NCBI GenBank assembly: GCA_001821395.1
Contig: MHLM01000004.1
Location: 64,001-128,000 of the forward strand
DNA: 64,000 nt
Direction of reading: 5' to 3'
DNA from: Candidatus Lloydbacteria bacterium RIFCSPHIGHO2_02_FULL_50_18
GTDB lineage: Bacteria; Patescibacteriota; Minisyncoccia; Phycocordibacterales; UBA6899
Notes under the pieces: generated by a model
What the model saw: only the letters and a program-made list of their open reading frames with translations
Told to the model about the DNA's origin: nothing
Databases searched by the model: none
Shown here: positions 7,235 through 37,470 of the stretch, piece by piece
How the letters are laid out: every line of letters begins with the position of its first letter
How positions within the stretch are numbered: the stretch's first letter is position 1
Position numbers and translations under genes: made by a program

Positions 7235-9130
7235 ATGATTCAAGAGACCGCTCTTACTATTATGAAAACGGGGGCGAATGTATTCCTCACGGGGGAGCCC
7301 GGGAGCGGTAAAACGCATACCGTAAACGCATATATCCGCTACCTCCGCGAGCACAACGTCAATCCTTCGATCACTGCTTCAACGGGTATCGCCGCGACGC
7401 ACGTCGGCGGGATGACCATTCATTCATGGAGCGGTATCGGCATCAAGCGTGCGCTCACCGAATATGACCTCGATGCGCTGTCCTCGAACGAAGGACTTGT
7501 GAAGCGTATCGCCAATGCAAAGGTGCTTATCATCGATGAGATATCGATGCTCGACGGCAACACGCTGGTCATGGTGGAGGCGGTCACGCGAACGCTTCGT
7601 CGCAAGCACGAGCCTTTCGGCGGACTGCAGATAATTTTCGTCGGCGATTTCTTTCAGCTGCCTCCCATCGCGGACCGGGCAAGCGGTGTTCGTGCGCAGT
7701 TTTGTTTCGAATCAACAGCATGGCGAGTGGCGAATCCCATAGTGTGCTATCTCTCCGAGCAGCACCGTCAGGAAGACACCGCGTTTCTCTCTACGCTTGG
7801 CGCCATTCGCCGCGGAGAGCTCGAGGATAGCGTCTTTGAATATATCGGCGAGAGGCACGTGCTCCCAGGTGAGCATCCACACGACATTCCGCAGCTCTAT
7901 ACGCACAACATTGATGTCGACAAAAAGAATACGGAAGAGCTCGCAAAACTTGAAACGGAAGAAAAGGTCTTTCTCATGAGCACGAAGGGGACGAGCAATC
8001 GCGTGGAGCAGCTGATCAAGGGCTGTCTTTCACCCGAGGAACTGGTGTTGAAAGAAGGCGCATCGGTGATGTTCACCAAAAATAATTTTGAAAACGGCTA
8101 TGTGAACGGCACATTGGGGACGGTGGTGGGATTCGACGAGGACAATGGTTTTCCAATTGTTGAAACATCGGGCGGAGAAAATATTACCGCGCTTCCTTCC
8201 GAATGGGCCGTTGATGATTCTGGGAAAGTGCTCGCCACCATCACTCAGGTACCGCTCCGACTCGCGTGGGCTATTACCGTGCACAAGAGCCAGGGGATGA
8301 GCCTTGATGCCGCGACGATGGATCTCTCGCGCGCATTTGAATACGGGCAAGGGTATGTGGCACTCTCTCGTGTACGCGCATTCTCGGGATTGCACATCCT
8401 CGGCATCAATCAGCGCGCATTCGAGGTGCACCCTCTTGTGCTTGAGCGCGACCTCGCGTTTCACGAGCGTTCGGATGAAGCGGAGGCGGGGTTTCTCGAC
8501 ATGTCGGACGCCGACCTCCGGAAGTTACACGAGAACTTTTTACTCGCCATTGGAGGGAATCTGGCGAAAAAAGAAATCATTGCCAAGGCATTCGGTGTTC
8601 CAAAACTGAGTACGTATGAAGAAACGCTCGCGCTCCTCAGCCCCGGGATGACGCTCGCCGCGATTGCCAAGCGTCGGGACGTGACCGAGGGGACGATCGT
8701 GGGCCATATCGAAGAACTCGCGCTACTCGGAAAGCTCCCGTCGATAGACATCGCCGCCTTTGCCGAGCTTCCTGCGTCGGTGGTGAAGGAGATAACGCAA
8801 ACGATCGAGACGATCGGAGGAGAATTTCTCAAGCCGCTCTACCTTGAATTGGATGAACGTTATTCTTATGAAACGATCCGTCTTGTTCGATTCGGAGCGG
8901 GCATTGCTCCGAAGCAAAAAGACGCCGTCGTTGCGAAAAAAGAAAAGGTAAAAAAGGTGTCACATGAAAAACCCGCAAAGCTCGGAGCGAAGTGGGGAAA
9001 GGAAGAGGAAGAACGACTCACAAAAATGTTCAAAGAGGGAAAGAAGACGAAGGACATCGCACAGACACTTGAACGGCAGTCGGGGGGTATCCGTGCTCGT
9101 TTGAAGAAGCTGGGGCTGATAAAAAAATAG
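7235..9130 (+). CDS. PIF1/RecD-family ATP-dependent DNA helicase with C-terminal HTH-like domains
   Basis: Walker A GEPGSGKT, Walker B LIIDEISM, the QLPPI motif and VHKSQG. The C-terminal roughly 190 aa carry HTH-like segments. Confidence 0.75.
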   Translation: MIQETALTIMKTGANVFLTGEPGSGKTHTVNAYIRYLREHNVNPSITASTGIAATHVGGMTIHSWSGIGIKRALTEYDLDALSSNEGLVKRIANAKVLIIDEISMLDGNTLVMVEAVTRTLRRKHEPFGGLQIIFVGDFFQLPPIADRASGVRAQFCFESTAWRVANPIVCYLSEQHRQEDTAFLSTLGAIRRGELEDSVFEYIGERHVLPGEHPHDIPQLYTHNIDVDKKNTEELAKLETEEKVFLMSTKGTSNRVEQLIKGCLSPEELVLKEGASVMFTKNNFENGYVNGTLGTVVGFDEDNGFPIVETSGGENITALPSEWAVDDSGKVLATITQVPLRLAWAITVHKSQGMSLDAATMDLSRAFEYGQGYVALSRVRAFSGLHILGINQRAFEVHPLVLERDLAFHERSDEAEAGFLDMSDADLRKLHENFLLAIGGNLAKKEIIAKAFGVPKLSTYEETLALLSPGMTLAAIAKRRDVTEGTIVGHIEELALLGKLPSIDIAAFAELPASVVKEITQTIETIGGEFLKPLYLELDERYSYETIRLVRFGAGIAPKQKDAVVAKKEKVKKVSHEKPAKLGAKWGKEEEERLTKMFKEGKKTKDIAQTLERQSGGIRARLKKLGLIKK

Positions 9131-9184
9131 ACAAAAATTTGAAAGCGAGAGGTATTTGACAAGTGCGATAAACTACTGCAGGAT
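9070..9184 (+). repeat. 115-bp direct repeat, copy A (last 61 nt of the helicase CDS plus the downstream TTGACA-containing region)
   Basis: About 90% identical to 10906..11020. Contains TTGACA at 9156..9161. Confidence 0.8.
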
Positions 9185-9205
9185 TGACGGTAGACATACA
9201 TTTCA

Positions 9206-10831
9206 TTGAAAGAAAATATCATGAGAACAATCGGTTTTCTCAGAGCTTTCTTCTCCATCTTCAAGGAGATGCGCACCTCGTATCTCCCTCCGCTCATGGT
9301 ATACATGGCTGCGGGTGTTTCCGGGATTACTGCCATCGTTGGCACGTTCTACGTGAAGGAGCGACTCGGGCTTTCTGCGGAATTTCTGAGTGCGCTCGGT
9401 TTTTGGATTGGTTTGCCGTGGGTACTCAAGATGCCTATTGGTCACCTTGTCGATCTTCTGTGGCGGTGGAAAAGCGCATTCGTAATTCTCGGAGCAGGAT
9501 TGATTGCGTCGAGCCTCGGCATTATGGTCGGACTTCTTGGTTATACCGATGCGATGCGCGAAGTTGCCAGAGTGGAAGCGTGGTATGTCATCGCGGTTCT
9601 GCTTGCGCCGATCGGGTATGTGCTCCAAGATATCGTTGCGGATGCGATGACGGTCGAAGCAGTTCCGCGCATGAATCTTGACGGCACCGCGGTGAGCGAC
9701 GCCGATCTCAAGCTGATGCACACGACCATGCAGACACTTGGTCGCATTGCGATCATCGGCGGTGGTATCCTGGTATCTCTCGTAAATATCTTTCTGCTCA
9801 CTGGTGTTGGAGATCTTCCGCCGGCGGAAAAAGCGGCTACGTATCTTTTTGTATACCAGCTTGCCCTCGCCATCCCGATGATCTCAGTGCTCGGTGTCTT
9901 GCTTGCATCGGTGTTTCGTTGGAGTGACGTACGGACGCTCGTTGCGCAAGGAAAAACGAAAGCTGAGGCCCGGGCATTTCTCGATCGAGCATGTAAGGCT
10001 CCCGCGATAAACTGGGTGTTACTTGGTGGCGGGCTTGCGTTCGCAATTGCTGCCATTACGATCGGATTGAGCAAGATCGATGGAGGCCAGGAGATTGTTT
10101 TTGGTATCTCACTTCTTATCATTCTCTTCCTCATGAATCAACTCATGAAGGAGATCAGCAAGGAGGGTCGCAGGACGCTCATTGTCACGGCGCTCCTCAT
10201 TTTCGTCTATCGCGCGATGCCGGGAGTTGGACCGGGGATAGAGTGGTGGCAGATTGATGAATTGCACTTCGATCAGGAATTCTTTGCGAAGCTGTCATTC
10301 ATCGGCAGCACGCTCGTCCTCCTCGGGATGCTCGGTTTTCGTCGTTTTATTGCTGAGCGGTCTATGGCATATGTGCTCGGATTCCTGACGGTTGCGGGAA
10401 CGTTGCTGTCGCTTCCGACAATTGGCATGTATTACGGATTGCATGAGTGGACGGCCGCTATGACCGGAGGAGTCGTCGACGCACGCTTTATTGCGATCGT
10501 CGATACGGCAATTTCATCTCCTCTAGGGCAGGTCGCAATGATTCCCATGCTTGCGTGGATCGCAAACTCGGCACCGGAGCAGCTCAAGGCGACATTCTTT
10601 GCGGTCATGGCATCGTTTACGAACCTTGCACTCTCCGCGTCCAGCCTCGGAACGAAGTATTTGAATCAGGTCTTCGTGGTGACTCGTGAAGTGAGAGACG
10701 AAGCGACGAATGCCATCATTACACAGGCGAACTACGCTGAATTGGGAACCTTGCTCATCGTGGCAACCGCACTCGGATTCGTTGTGCCAATGCTTGCCGT
10801 TTGGCTTTTGCGAAAAAAGACCAGTTACTAA
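9206..10831 (+). CDS. Polytopic membrane transporter, possibly of the BT1/folate-biopterin (MFS-like) family
   Basis: About 12 predicted TMs. The family assignment is tentative. The start is ambiguous (TTG 9206 or ATG 9221). Confidence 0.45.
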   Translation: MKENIMRTIGFLRAFFSIFKEMRTSYLPPLMVYMAAGVSGITAIVGTFYVKERLGLSAEFLSALGFWIGLPWVLKMPIGHLVDLLWRWKSAFVILGAGLIASSLGIMVGLLGYTDAMREVARVEAWYVIAVLLAPIGYVLQDIVADAMTVEAVPRMNLDGTAVSDADLKLMHTTMQTLGRIAIIGGGILVSLVNIFLLTGVGDLPPAEKAATYLFVYQLALAIPMISVLGVLLASVFRWSDVRTLVAQGKTKAEARAFLDRACKAPAINWVLLGGGLAFAIAAITIGLSKIDGGQEIVFGISLLIILFLMNQLMKEISKEGRRTLIVTALLIFVYRAMPGVGPGIEWWQIDELHFDQEFFAKLSFIGSTLVLLGMLGFRRFIAERSMAYVLGFLTVAGTLLSLPTIGMYYGLHEWTAAMTGGVVDARFIAIVDTAISSPLGQVAMIPMLAWIANSAPEQLKATFFAVMASFTNLALSASSLGTKYLNQVFVVTREVRDEATNAIITQANYAELGTLLIVATALGFVVPMLAVWLLRKKTSY

Positions 10832-10850
10832 GAAGTAACAAACCCGCGTT

Positions 10851-10876
10851 CGCGCGGGTTTTTTTGCGCTATTTTT
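10851..10876 (+). terminator. Rho-independent terminator
   Basis: Hairpin CCCGCG-ttcg-CGCGGG followed by TTTTTTT. Confidence 0.7.
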
Positions 10877-10905
10877 CTCTTCCAATGGGTACCCTCGGAT
10901 TGCAA

Positions 10906-11020
10906 TGAACGCCAGTCGGGAGGTATTCGCTCTCGTTTGAAAAAGCTGGGGCTGATAAAAAAAAGACATACATTTGAAGGCAAGGAGGTATTTGACAAGT
11001 GCGATAAACTACTGCAGGAT
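10906..11020 (+). repeat. 115-bp direct repeat, copy B (contains an out-of-context fragment of the helicase C-terminal coding sequence)
   Basis: Translates to QSGGIRSRLKKLGLIKK, which matches the helicase tail. TTGACA at 10992..10997. Confidence 0.8.
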
Positions 11021-11060
11021 GAAACAAGATCGTTTTCTTTGACGAAACTCTAAGGAGTCT

Positions 11061-12053
11061 GTGATGATCAAAGCATTTTTTGGAGACAAGAAGTGGTTCT
11101 GGTGGGCGTACGGCGGACTTGTGTTCTTGCTCTGTTCGCTCTATGCGCAGGTGCACATGACGGTGCTTTTGAATGACTGGTATGGACGCTTCTACGACAT
11201 GATGGGCGATGTGTCAGCGCACAATCTCGACCAATTCTGGAAAGAGTTGATGAATTTCTTTTACATTGCGATCCCATATTCAATCCTTGCCAGTATTACT
11301 GGGTATTTTACAAGGCACTATGGGTTTGCGTGGAGGGAGGCAATCACTATGAGCTACCTTCCTAAATGGCGGAATGTGAAAATTGAGATCGAGGGAGCAA
11401 GCCAGCGTATCCAAGAGGACGCATCGCGTTTTGCAAAGATCGTCGAGTCACTCGGACTTCAGGTTGCTCGTGCCGTCATGGTACTCATTGCATTCCTTCC
11501 TGTGCTTTGGACATTGAGTTCACATATTCCGCTTCCATATTTCGGGCCCGTAGCTGGTTCGCTGGTGTGGGTGGCGCTGTGCACAAGCTTGGGTGGCATG
11601 ACGATTTCTTGGTTCGTCGGATATTATCTTCCGAAGCTGCAGTATAACAATGACGTTGTCGAGGCGCGCTTTCGCAAGGAGCTCGTGTATGGCGAAGATG
11701 ATAAGCAAAATCACGCGTCGATTCCGACACTACTCGAGATGTTCACCAGCGTGCGACTCAACTATCGGCGACTGTTCCTGCATTACGGGTATTTTGATCT
11801 CTGGTCTAATTTGTACGGTCAGATTATGGTACTTGTGCCGTTCATGATCGCAGGGCCGAACCTCTTTCTCCCCGCAGGTACCACAGGATTGATCACACTT
11901 GGAGTGCTGATGAAGGTCAGTAATGCCTTTGATAAGGTGCATTCGAGCTTTTCGCTTTTCATCGACAATTGGACGACGGTGACGGAACTCAGGAGTATCT
12001 GGAGGCGCCTGCATGAGTTTGAGCGAAACATCGACAAGCATCAGATGACATAA
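11061..12053 (+). CDS. SbmA/BacA-family inner-membrane peptide transporter (short form)
   Basis: Family-typical motifs NDWYGRFYD, RWREAI, GASQRIQEDASRFA, IAFLPVLWTLSSHIP, KELVYGEDD and NWTTVTELRSIWRRL. Confidence 0.75.
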   Translation: MMIKAFFGDKKWFWWAYGGLVFLLCSLYAQVHMTVLLNDWYGRFYDMMGDVSAHNLDQFWKELMNFFYIAIPYSILASITGYFTRHYGFAWREAITMSYLPKWRNVKIEIEGASQRIQEDASRFAKIVESLGLQVARAVMVLIAFLPVLWTLSSHIPLPYFGPVAGSLVWVALCTSLGGMTISWFVGYYLPKLQYNNDVVEARFRKELVYGEDDKQNHASIPTLLEMFTSVRLNYRRLFLHYGYFDLWSNLYGQIMVLVPFMIAGPNLFLPAGTTGLITLGVLMKVSNAFDKVHSSFSLFIDNWTTVTELRSIWRRLHEFERNIDKHQMT

Positions 12054-12096
12054 GAAAAACACCGAAGACACAATTCCCGCTTCACGGCGGGGATTT

Positions 12097-12444
12097 TTAT
12101 TTGCACTTTGGTTTTTTGGCCAGCAGACTCGCGTCGACTGCGTCTTCAATCCAGATCGAAAGGAGGTCGGGGTTTTCCATAATTTCTTCAGGAAGCGTGA
12201 AATAGCTCAGCGTTACCTTTTTTCCTTTTGCTTTGTACACAAAAGGCGTGCTCCCATATTTTTCGTATTGCGATTGATTAACCCCATCAACTTTGAAATA
12301 GAGTACGCCATTTAGAACCAGCGCAAAGATGACCCCGTCTAAGTAAACACCATAGCCGCCAAACATGGCACACGAGGTAATGCCGGGAATATGACCCATC
12401 AGGTCATGCACGATAAAATCATGGAATTCACTATTGCGCTTCAT
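12097..12444 (-). CDS. TfoX/Sxy N-terminal domain protein
   Basis: MFGGYGVYLDGVIFALV...LYFKVD pattern of TfoX_N. 115 aa. Confidence 0.55.
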   Translation of the reverse strand: MKRNSEFHDFIVHDLMGHIPGITSCAMFGGYGVYLDGVIFALVLNGVLYFKVDGVNQSQYEKYGSTPFVYKAKGKKVTLSYFTLPEEIMENPDLLSIWIEDAVDASLLAKKPKCK

Positions 12445-12941: not shown

Positions 12942-13012
12942 TGCGGGTTCGTCTAATGGTAGGACATCGCCCTCTGGAGGCGAGTATTGGGGTTCGAGTC
13001 CCTGACCCGCAG
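12942..13012 (+). tRNA. tRNA-Gln (anticodon CTG)
   Basis: U1:A72 acceptor stem TGCGGGT/ACCCGCA, D-arm GTCT..GGAC, anticodon stem TCGCC/GGCGA with loop CTCTGGA, T-loop TTCGAGT, and discriminator G. CCA is not encoded. Confidence 0.8.
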
Positions 13013-13018
13013 CAAATG

Positions 13019-36438: not shown

Positions 36439-37470
36439 CTATGGGGTGCGCTGAAATAGTCGCAGTAGAAAAGCAAAAAGGATGTCGTACCACCTTGGTA
36501 TGTACGTTTGAGCGGGAAATGGTAGCGCCTCGTTCATCCAGAGCGCTATGATCTTTCTGAGTTCGGCCACCATGTGCTTGTTGTCAAAAAAGATGCCCGA
36601 TTCGACATTCCAGTCAAATGACAGCGTGTCGAGGTTTTGAGAGCCCATTGTTCCTATTCGGTCATCAACAAGCATGACCTTTGCATGGTTCATCCCGACG
36701 CCCAAGAGGCAGTGCACGCCGATCTTTTCGAAGCGGCTTGCATAATAATAATTGATTCGATCAAGGTATGCATGGTCTGTGGTTTTCGGGATGATGATGG
36801 TCACCACGACCCCACGCATGACGACGCGATGGAGGTGCGCCACCATCCAAGGATGGGGTATGAGATAGGGTGTAACGAGCACGATGCTGTGCTGTGCGCC
36901 ATCAATGTGTTCCTCATAGTGTGCGCGTAATCCGCGAAATTTTTTCTGCACTCCGTTTTCAATGAACCATGTGCGTGCACGACTCCAAAGTTTGGGTTCG
37001 TTCGCAAAGATGAGCGCAGGGTTCTTCCCACCGCATTCACGATAGACACGCGCAAAAGAGCGAACGGCTATTTTTGCAACACGACCGGAGACACGCACTT
37101 GCAGGTCCTTCCAGCGAGCGAATTGTCCGGAGATGTTCACCCCGCCAAGGAAGACGGACCACTCGTCGATGATGAGCATTTTCCGATGTGTGCGACGGAG
37201 CCAATAGCTGAAGAGTCGCACTTCTGCGCCTGCGCTCTTGAGTCGCTCGATCGCTTCATTGGCCAGCCCAAAGCTCCCGAATGCGTCGAGAATAACCACG
37301 ACACGAATACCGGCACGCGCCTTGACCTCAAGTTCTGAAAGAAAATCATACCCCGTTGTATCACCGTCAAAGACATACATTTCGAGATAAATACTCTCCT
37401 TCGCGCCAATGATCGCTTGGAGCATTGCATCCCAGGCATGCTCTGATGTGGTGTAGAATTTACCGCGCAT
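36439..37470 (-). CDS. Phospholipase D family protein / cardiolipin synthase-like
   Basis: Two HKD motifs: HRKMLIIDEWSVFLGGVN and HAKVMLVDDRIGTMGSQNLD. Confidence 0.75.
   Translation of the reverse strand: MRGKFYTTSEHAWDAMLQAIIGAKESIYLEMYVFDGDTTGYDFLSELEVKARAGIRVVVILDAFGSFGLANEAIERLKSAGAEVRLFSYWLRRTHRKMLIIDEWSVFLGGVNISGQFARWKDLQVRVSGRVAKIAVRSFARVYRECGGKNPALIFANEPKLWSRARTWFIENGVQKKFRGLRAHYEEHIDGAQHSIVLVTPYLIPHPWMVAHLHRVVMRGVVVTIIIPKTTDHAYLDRINYYYASRFEKIGVHCLLGVGMNHAKVMLVDDRIGTMGSQNLDTLSFDWNVESGIFFDNKHMVAELRKIIALWMNEALPFPAQTYIPRWYDILFAFLLRLFQRTP

Follow-up and report, generated by a model that had tools for sequence, protein, structure and literature searches.

The 64,000-nucleotide (nt) stretch analyzed here (the window; contig MHLM01000004.1, positions 64,001 to 128,000 of the forward strand) belongs to Candidatus Lloydbacteria bacterium RIFCSPHIGHO2_02_FULL_50_18, an uncultured member of the Parcubacteria, within the Candidate Phyla Radiation (CPR), from Rifle aquifer groundwater. 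It carries a gene for a BT1-family transporter that is preceded by the end of a PIF1-like helicase gene and a putative promoter, and followed by a second, diverged copy of both and then by a gene for an SbmA/BacA-like transporter. This arrangement probably arose when a segment consisting of a helicase 3′ end, promoter, BT1 gene and terminator recombined into the locus and shifted the SbmA gene already there, together with its promoter and the old end of the helicase gene, downstream (Table 1).

The two copies, A and B, were located with a repeat finder and by pairwise alignment. They are direct repeats in the same register, 1,836 nt apart, and blastn gave 89.7% identity between them over 116 columns, while shuffles of the window produced no match to the repeat. 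The direct repeats of 115 bp that a preliminary description of this DNA had placed on either side of a 1.8-kb segment carrying BT1 are thus genuine. The same description had copy A span the last 61 nt of the helicase coding sequence (CDS) and the following intergenic region, and the CDS call of 7235-9130 confirmed this; copy B sits 3′ of the BT1 terminator. Divergence is distributed unevenly over three blocks. Block 1 (9070-9127 and 10906-10963) covers 58 nt of the helicase CDS, six of which differ (90% identity), and block 2, of about 21 nt, has four mismatches and two one-base indels. Block 3 (9149-9184 and 10985-11020) is identical at 36 of 36 positions and reads GAGGTATTTGACAAGTGCGATAAACTACTGCAGGAT. 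The 64-kb window holds no third copy of the repeat, and further copies of the 36-mer, a possible regulon signal, were found neither in the window nor in 98 other loci.

Copy B contains a relic of the helicase gene. The relic encodes ERQSGGIRSRLKKLGLIKK, in which 18 of 19 amino acids (aa) are identical to the helicase C-terminus, and its stop codon was lost through a 1-nt deletion, one of the two block 2 indels. In blastn comparisons the relic (10907-10962) matched the 3′ end of the helicase gene of a related locus, L091, and likewise that of L096. Copies A and B are more alike than either is to the relatives compared. The reading frame that ends at the BT1 stop codon (TAA, 10829-10831) stays open beyond it (10832-11060), across terminator and spacer and on to the end of the relic; with the terminator hairpin in between, the frame shared by relic and BT1 is probably meaningless.

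A short motif from the repeat linker recurs in the window. The 12- to 14-mer (AA)AGACATACATTT(GA) was found four times (9192-9203, 10962-10977, 37369-37382 and, on the minus strand, 57168-57153), and five matches with no more than two mismatches are present, a number equalled in 0 of 100 shuffles. The copy at 37369 lies inside a coding region. On the minus strand the motif comes directly after a stop codon and runs into a sequence resembling a strong promoter, AGACATACATTTGACA-N17-TAGTAT.

The differences between the two helicase ends are those expected of working genes. Over 57 coding nt, five of the six differences between copies A and B are synonymous third-position changes; the sixth exchanges Ala and Ser, both of which occur among orthologues. 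When six differences were placed at random in a simulation, five or more were synonymous with P = 0.0095. The copies differ by approximately 0.3 changes per synonymous site, and by a hand estimate a neutral relic would carry about 12 to 14 "non-synonymous" changes, of which at most one was observed. Because of this excess of synonymous differences, the comparison points to divergence of copies A and B as functional helicase alleles in two lineages, and to recombination between those lineages.

Related genomes retain the arrangements from which such a locus could be assembled. A helicase-sbmA junction lacking the transporter, which the preliminary description had named as the arrangement to look for in relatives, was found in L091/L092, L090, L102 and L103/L104. 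In L091 and L092 the gene order is FtsX-CTP synthase-helicase-SbmA-small open reading frame (ORF)-TfoX(−)-TspO(−), without BT1, and L091 is the closest relative with context (helicase, 85% aa identity). The SbmA proteins of L090, L102 and L103/L104 are the closest homologues with context (77 to 78% identity); their genes lie directly 3′ of a complete helicase end and a promoter motif, TTGACA-N17-CA[GA][AT]AT, again without BT1. The order helicase-promoter-BT1 was found in three lineages, L005, L006 and L098, and in L006 TspO(−) follows BT1 directly. The slot is empty in L101, where the helicase gene is followed by TfoX(−)-TspO(−). Of the lineages compared, only that of the window has both BT1 and SbmA plus a relic, and no helicase relic was found in the other loci examined.

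By blastn, the window is colinear with L091 through FtsX-CTP synthase, the helicase, SbmA with its terminator, and TfoX-TspO-tRNA, and in this colinear region positions 9185-10905 are the sole part without a counterpart in L091. BT1 is absent from this site in L091, L090, L102, L103 and L101. Judged by these gene orders, the site 3′ of the helicase gene in Lloydbacteria is a variable slot that holds a putative promoter and the gene for either an SbmA/BacA-like or a BT1-family transporter. Together with the reality of the repeats, the BT1-less junctions in relatives uphold one of the two origins that had been suggested at the outset, recombination-mediated insertion of the BT1 segment. In the closest relative, L096 (helicase, 90%), the contig region 2282-2335 stops exactly with the final T of CAGGAT, the point at which the repeated block of the window also ends. 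An assembler breaks off in this way at a repeat or a strain branch point, and L096 may therefore carry the same duplication or a BT1/SbmA polymorphism.

The BT1 gene appears to have a history distinct from that of its surroundings. Positions 9250-10893 of the window, which cover the BT1 body, its terminator and about 60 nt beyond, are 96.3% identical to positions 12058-13701 of L005 (Parcubacteria GW2011_GWA2_47_7), whereas the flanking helicase, CTP synthase and FtsX genes of that lineage show 74 to 76% DNA identity. The highly similar stretch extends from 29 nt inside the BT1 CDS, which places the left breakpoint of the exchange near that position, to at least 62 nt past the stop codon, and the identity holds in separate assemblies of the L005 lineage. 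Each of the five contigs known from it ends within BT1 or shortly beyond. Because BT1 is so much more similar than its flanks, it appears to move between lineages, and the comparison speaks for a recent exchange of this gene in particular between lineages that occur together. Three Lloydbacteria clusters with BT1 were present among the best 120 hits. The best homologues outside these clusters, from Nitrosospira, Nitrosovibrio, Nitrosomonas and Burkholderiales, are 63 to 68% identical, which is unusually high for a comparison between CPR bacteria and Betaproteobacteria and suggests inter-phylum transfer of BT1. The L098 protein, encoded in the same slot, is more distant (56 to 58% identity) than these proteobacterial BT1s. 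The BT1 gene has no obvious composition anomaly. The 40-nt spacer after its terminator is identical in L005 up to where that contig reaches (10893). No DNA match to it was found in other loci or elsewhere in the window, none of its six translated frames is similar to the C-termini of TfoX or TspO, and a single metagenome scan with a 25-mer from it returned the same contig only.

The identical 36-mer contains TTGACA-N17-CAGGAT, and this motif was compared in 10 sequences (copies A and B, L096, L091, L090, L005, L006, L098, L102 and L103). TTGACA was present in all 10, as was a −10 hexamer of the form CA[GA][GAT]AT; the hexamers are 17 nt apart in nine sequences and 16 in one, and the spacers between them are unrelated across lineages. 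In eight related lineages, every forward gene 3′ of the helicase has the motif 5′ of it, 30 to 85 nt from the start codon, and L101 and L007, which have no forward gene after the helicase, have no such motif. Other TTGACA-type sites in the window have TAGGAT, TAGACT or TAGTAT as the −10 element, and CAGGAT is close to this local norm. Because the hexamers and their spacing are conserved while the spacer drifts, the element behaves as a sigma-70-type promoter whose activity is predicted from its sequence. The motif had been noted upstream of both transporters in the preliminary description, and its conservation in position but not in spacer sequence makes it promoter-like. A conserved nine-codon mini-ORF reported alongside it did not withstand the comparison: it is the promoter read as codons, it has non-synonymous changes in the closest relative, L096, it is unrelated in L091, L090 and L006, and no consistent ribosome-binding site precedes it. 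Since the two promoters are identical, co-regulation of the transporters is plausible, although their 5′ untranslated regions (UTRs) differ.

A riboswitch or leader-peptide attenuator in the shared region was also considered and rejected, as neither an RNA structure nor a conserved short ORF was found there. Rfam searches of this region (gathering thresholds and E ≤ 1) returned terminator look-alikes only, the weak leader matches corresponding to the BT1 terminator hairpin, and the repeat folded no better than shuffled sequences (z-scores of +1.0 and +1.2).

We propose that the lineage started with the order helicase-promoter-SbmA-terminator-TfoX(−)-TspO(−) and took up DNA with the order helicase-promoter-BT1-terminator from a related lineage; possible donors with helicase-promoter-BT1 exist in L005, L006 and L098. 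The incoming DNA would have undergone homologous recombination somewhere in the helicase gene, and its other end, 40 nt past the BT1 terminator, would have been joined illegitimately to a point in the resident helicase gene 61 nt upstream of its stop codon. Such an event would be homology-facilitated illegitimate recombination (HFIR), and its topology agrees with published models of HFIR and of 3′-end displacement. Because that join would lie upstream of the end of homology, 115 bp would be retained as a direct repeat. The outcome would be an intact helicase gene with promoter, BT1 and terminator, followed by the old 61-nt helicase end, promoter and SbmA. Since BT1 brings a strong terminator, SbmA would need a second promoter, and the retained one would keep it expressed; both transporters would now stand under identical sigma-70-type promoters with different 5′ UTRs. 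Four independent assemblies (L001-L004) contain this arrangement, including the junction at 10905/10906, which is bordered on either side by unique sequence.

A second event would be needed as well, because the two copies of the 36-mer do not differ at all, whereas the 79 nt next to them have diverged to the extent seen between alleles. This event might have been short-tract gene conversion between the copies. Alternatively, the duplication might have been perfect at first, with later allelic replacement of the helicase end by a BT1-less donor, in which case the crossover would resolve in the last stretch shared with that donor. What we infer from these comparisons is which gene, BT1 or SbmA, arrived last and in which direction the event ran, that the anchor lay in the helicase gene, that the DNA came by transformation, that the promoters are active and that a second event took place.

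Several observations weigh against insertion of BT1 as described. Sliding identity along the helicase gene against eight relatives (including L096 and L091), with no close reference among them, showed no breakpoint step. A single inter-lineage event does not predict 36/36 identity, and in L096, the closest relative, 4 of the 17 spacer nucleotides in this block are different. The L091 SbmA is 55% identical and has an N-terminal extension, which makes the backbone comparison imperfect. No homology is visible across 10905/10906, and the L005 contigs stop short of the donor's native continuation, in which any junction microhomology would show. Promoter activity and natural competence are both presumed. 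Finally, the adjacency of helicase and BT1 is as widespread as that of helicase and SbmA, which makes a mirror-image event possible. In that event the resident order would have been helicase-promoter-BT1-terminator-(TfoX/TspO), as in L006, and the SbmA segment would have come in on DNA carrying the last 61 nt of a helicase gene, promoter, SbmA, terminator and TfoX/TspO from a helicase-SbmA lineage, with a homologous anchor in TfoX/TspO and an illegitimate join after the BT1 terminator. The three helicase-BT1 lineages share the promoter type, the BT1 gene of L006 is followed by TspO(−), and the synonymous, allele-like divergence of the copies fits equally well; at the six differing sites copy B matches L096 and L091 more often than copy A does, which is neutral as to direction. 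Against this stand the order helicase-SbmA-TfoX-TspO in L091, whose SbmA terminator and downstream synteny are common to the window, the direct evidence of recent lateral movement for BT1 (96.3% against about 75% in the flanks), and the rarity of BT1 in the group. We regard the mirror-image event as a credible but rather unlikely account of the locus.

Duplication of the 115 bp in situ, as a long target-site-like or a replication-slippage or template-switch duplication accompanying the insertion of BT1, with later divergence in place and selection on the promoter, would explain why the copies are nearest each other and why the promoter block is identical, and the third partial linker copy at 9192-9203 hints at local template switching. 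It is nevertheless improbable, since a non-coding relic should change at all codon positions and the predominance of synonymous differences described above, with far fewer "non-synonymous" changes than expected, is unlike a decaying duplicate; the tandem duplication offered as the other origin in the preliminary description meets the same objection. Selection on the promoter also fails to explain the identical spacer, as spacers vary between lineages. A hybrid course, in which a perfect duplication later acquired the copy A differences by allelic recombination, is allowed within the second event of the proposed BT1 insertion. Direct repeats around a single-gene cargo with its own terminator, in a slot that varies among relatives, might also suggest that a transposon, integron-like cassette or integrative element brought BT1 and that the repeats are att or target sites. 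This is very improbable: no transposase, integrase or recombinase gene was found within ±10 kb, the borders have no terminal inverted repeats and no attC-like structure, no relic occurs in any other locus, and the repeat, at 115 bp and 90% identity, consists of the local helicase end and promoter and is not present at other sites. As specific candidates, a transposon or insertion sequence (IS) was rejected because this ±10-kb region has no transposase, the borders lack inverted repeats and the duplicated sequence is neither short nor identical, and an integron-like cassette for want of an integrase and of significant repeat structure. Related contigs do break at or near the repeat (L096 at CAGGAT, the L005 lineage in or after BT1), as they might if helicase-BT1 and helicase-SbmA strain variants had been threaded in series through the shared promoter during assembly. 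We give such an artefact next to no credence, however, because the four assemblies that contain the 10905/10906 join, unique on both sides, came from different samples and assemblers and include a 176-kb contig.

Table 1. Features of the helicase-BT1-SbmA locus (window coordinates)
Feature	Position	Strand	Details
PIF1-like helicase gene with C-terminal HTH_40/helix-turn-helix (HTH) tail	7235..9130	+	Pfam PF05970, PF14493
Repeat copy A	9070..9184	+	Helicase 3′ end 9070-9130, variable linker 9128-9148, identical 36-mer 9149-9184
Putative promoter A, for BT1	9156..9184	+	−35 TTGACA 9156-9161, 17-nt spacer, −10 CAGGAT 9179-9184
AGACATACATTT, third partial linker-motif copy in BT1 5′ UTR	9192..9203	+	Exact match to copy B 10964-10975
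BT1-family (folate-biopterin transporter family) membrane transporter gene, 536 aa, probable inserted cargo	9221..10831	+	Pfam PF03092
BT1 intrinsic terminator	10840..10866	+	9-bp GC-rich stem, then T-run
Unique 40-nt spacer, probably travelling with BT1	10866..10905	+	Right end is the 10905/10906 junction
Repeat copy B	10906..11020	+	Helicase 3′-end relic 10906-10963, linker 10964-10984, identical 36-mer 10985-11020
Putative promoter B, for SbmA	10992..11020	+	−35 10992-10997, 17-nt spacer, −10 CAGGAT 11015-11020; identical to promoter A
SbmA/BacA-like transporter gene, 329 aa, probable resident downstream gene	11064..12053	+	Pfam PF05992, E = 2.5e-111
Terminator 3′ of SbmA	12072..12095	+	Homologous to L091 terminator after SbmA

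Transcription from promoter A is predicted to start near 9191, and the SbmA-like gene has a Shine-Dalgarno sequence, AAGGAG, at 11051-11056. The helicase protein has a counterpart of 100% identity in Candidatus Lloydbacteria RIFCSPHIGHO2_01_FULL. The last ~50 residues of its C-terminus (8950-9130), WGKEEEERLTKMFKEGKKTKDIAQTLERQSGGIRARLKKLGLIKK, resemble a small HTH domain of the sigma-70 region 4/LuxR type; some sources name homologues NarL/FixJ or CsgD-type regulators, and the tail is missing from about one-third of the listed homologues.

Downstream of SbmA, the window has TfoX_N(−), TspO(−) and tRNA-Gln, in that order. The TfoX_N-domain gene (12097-12444, minus strand), of a family of competence regulators, adjoins the locus, whose structure seems to reflect the uptake of foreign DNA; among relatives it is present in L091, L101 and L007 and absent from L090, L102 and L006. 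The small conserved ORF between SbmA and TfoX/TspO (L091 13486-13761, 91 aa; L090 7249-7410, 53 aa) shares the motif TKAQYAWGVAREI in these two loci and is not present in the window. The tRNA-Gln(CTG) gene lies at 12942-13013, just past TspO. After it, between 14000 and 19000, the GC content drops from about 0.50 to about 0.40 over a stretch with small ORFs, an HTH_3 regulator, a SET-domain protein and an ECF-type sigma factor, which may be a genomic island beside the tRNA gene.

The genomes of CPR bacteria are very small and poor in mobile elements, and genetics is not available for this group; how its members gain uptake functions from neighbours has mostly been inferred from phylogeny. The locus described here provides a nucleotide-level record of one transporter gain, with the pre-insertion state visible in relatives and an allelic relic that assigns pieces of the locus to different lineages. 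As read from the sequence, it would also show how duplication of a promoter can rescue the expression of a gene cut off behind a terminator. The comparison further supplies a promoter definition for Lloydbacteria, TTGACA-N17-[CT]AG[GA]AT-like, and the locus gives evidence for a hot spot of transporter exchange. A more far-reaching idea, which we consider doubtful, is that the helicase 3′ end and promoter form a dedicated, recombinase-free docking site at which co-occurring Lloydbacteria exchange or stack promoter-ready transporter cassettes of the BT1 and SbmA types. If this were true, symbionts with tiny genomes could swap nutrient-uptake capacities by transformation, and the duplicated promoter would be a built-in means of ensuring expression of each cassette in the stack. 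Recurrent use of the site would then account for the perfect 36-mer, for the L096 contig ending at the last base of that block and for the BT1 alleles of two deep lineages (window type and L098 type, 56%). As it stands, the locus adds a well-preserved case of a known process, from a lineage that has been little studied, and does not overturn current views.

The individual elements of the locus can be set beside known systems. The putative promoters resemble sigma-70 (housekeeping) promoters in their perfect −35 TTGACA, 17-nt spacing, −10 element with A2 and T6, and freely varying spacer; they differ in that CAGGAT matches TATAAT at three of six positions. Direct repeats around one inserted gene and a content that varies between strains recall transposon target-site duplications and integron cassettes, but here the repeats are 115 bp long, non-identical and derived from a local gene, and no transposase or integrase, inverted repeats or attC accompany them. 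A closer parallel is the displacement model for the arrays of Rhs, contact-dependent inhibition (CDI) and type VI secretion system (T6SS) effector-immunity genes, in which old 3′ ends are shifted downstream (PMC5361080). There the cargo is a toxin/immunity pair rather than a nutrient transporter; the fragment at our locus is only 61 nt long, accompanied by its old promoter, and is not a functional orphan module, and a single displacement would have occurred in place of an array. In both cases the allele that comes in would keep its upstream part conserved but bring different cargo, the old 3′ end and its cargo would be moved downstream, and an orphan 3′ fragment is left beside the old downstream gene. 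HFIR has been described in natural transformation of Streptococcus pneumoniae, Acinetobacter baylyi and Pseudomonas stutzeri (PMC3240628 and references therein). In its classical form, resident DNA is usually deleted as the new DNA is inserted, whereas here, with presumed competence and a putative anchor, 115 bp of resident sequence would have been retained as a direct repeat. As would be expected of HFIR, one end of the insert is continuous with homologous sequence, the helicase gene, no homology is visible across the junction at the other, and foreign cargo would have been gained without the machinery of a mobile element.

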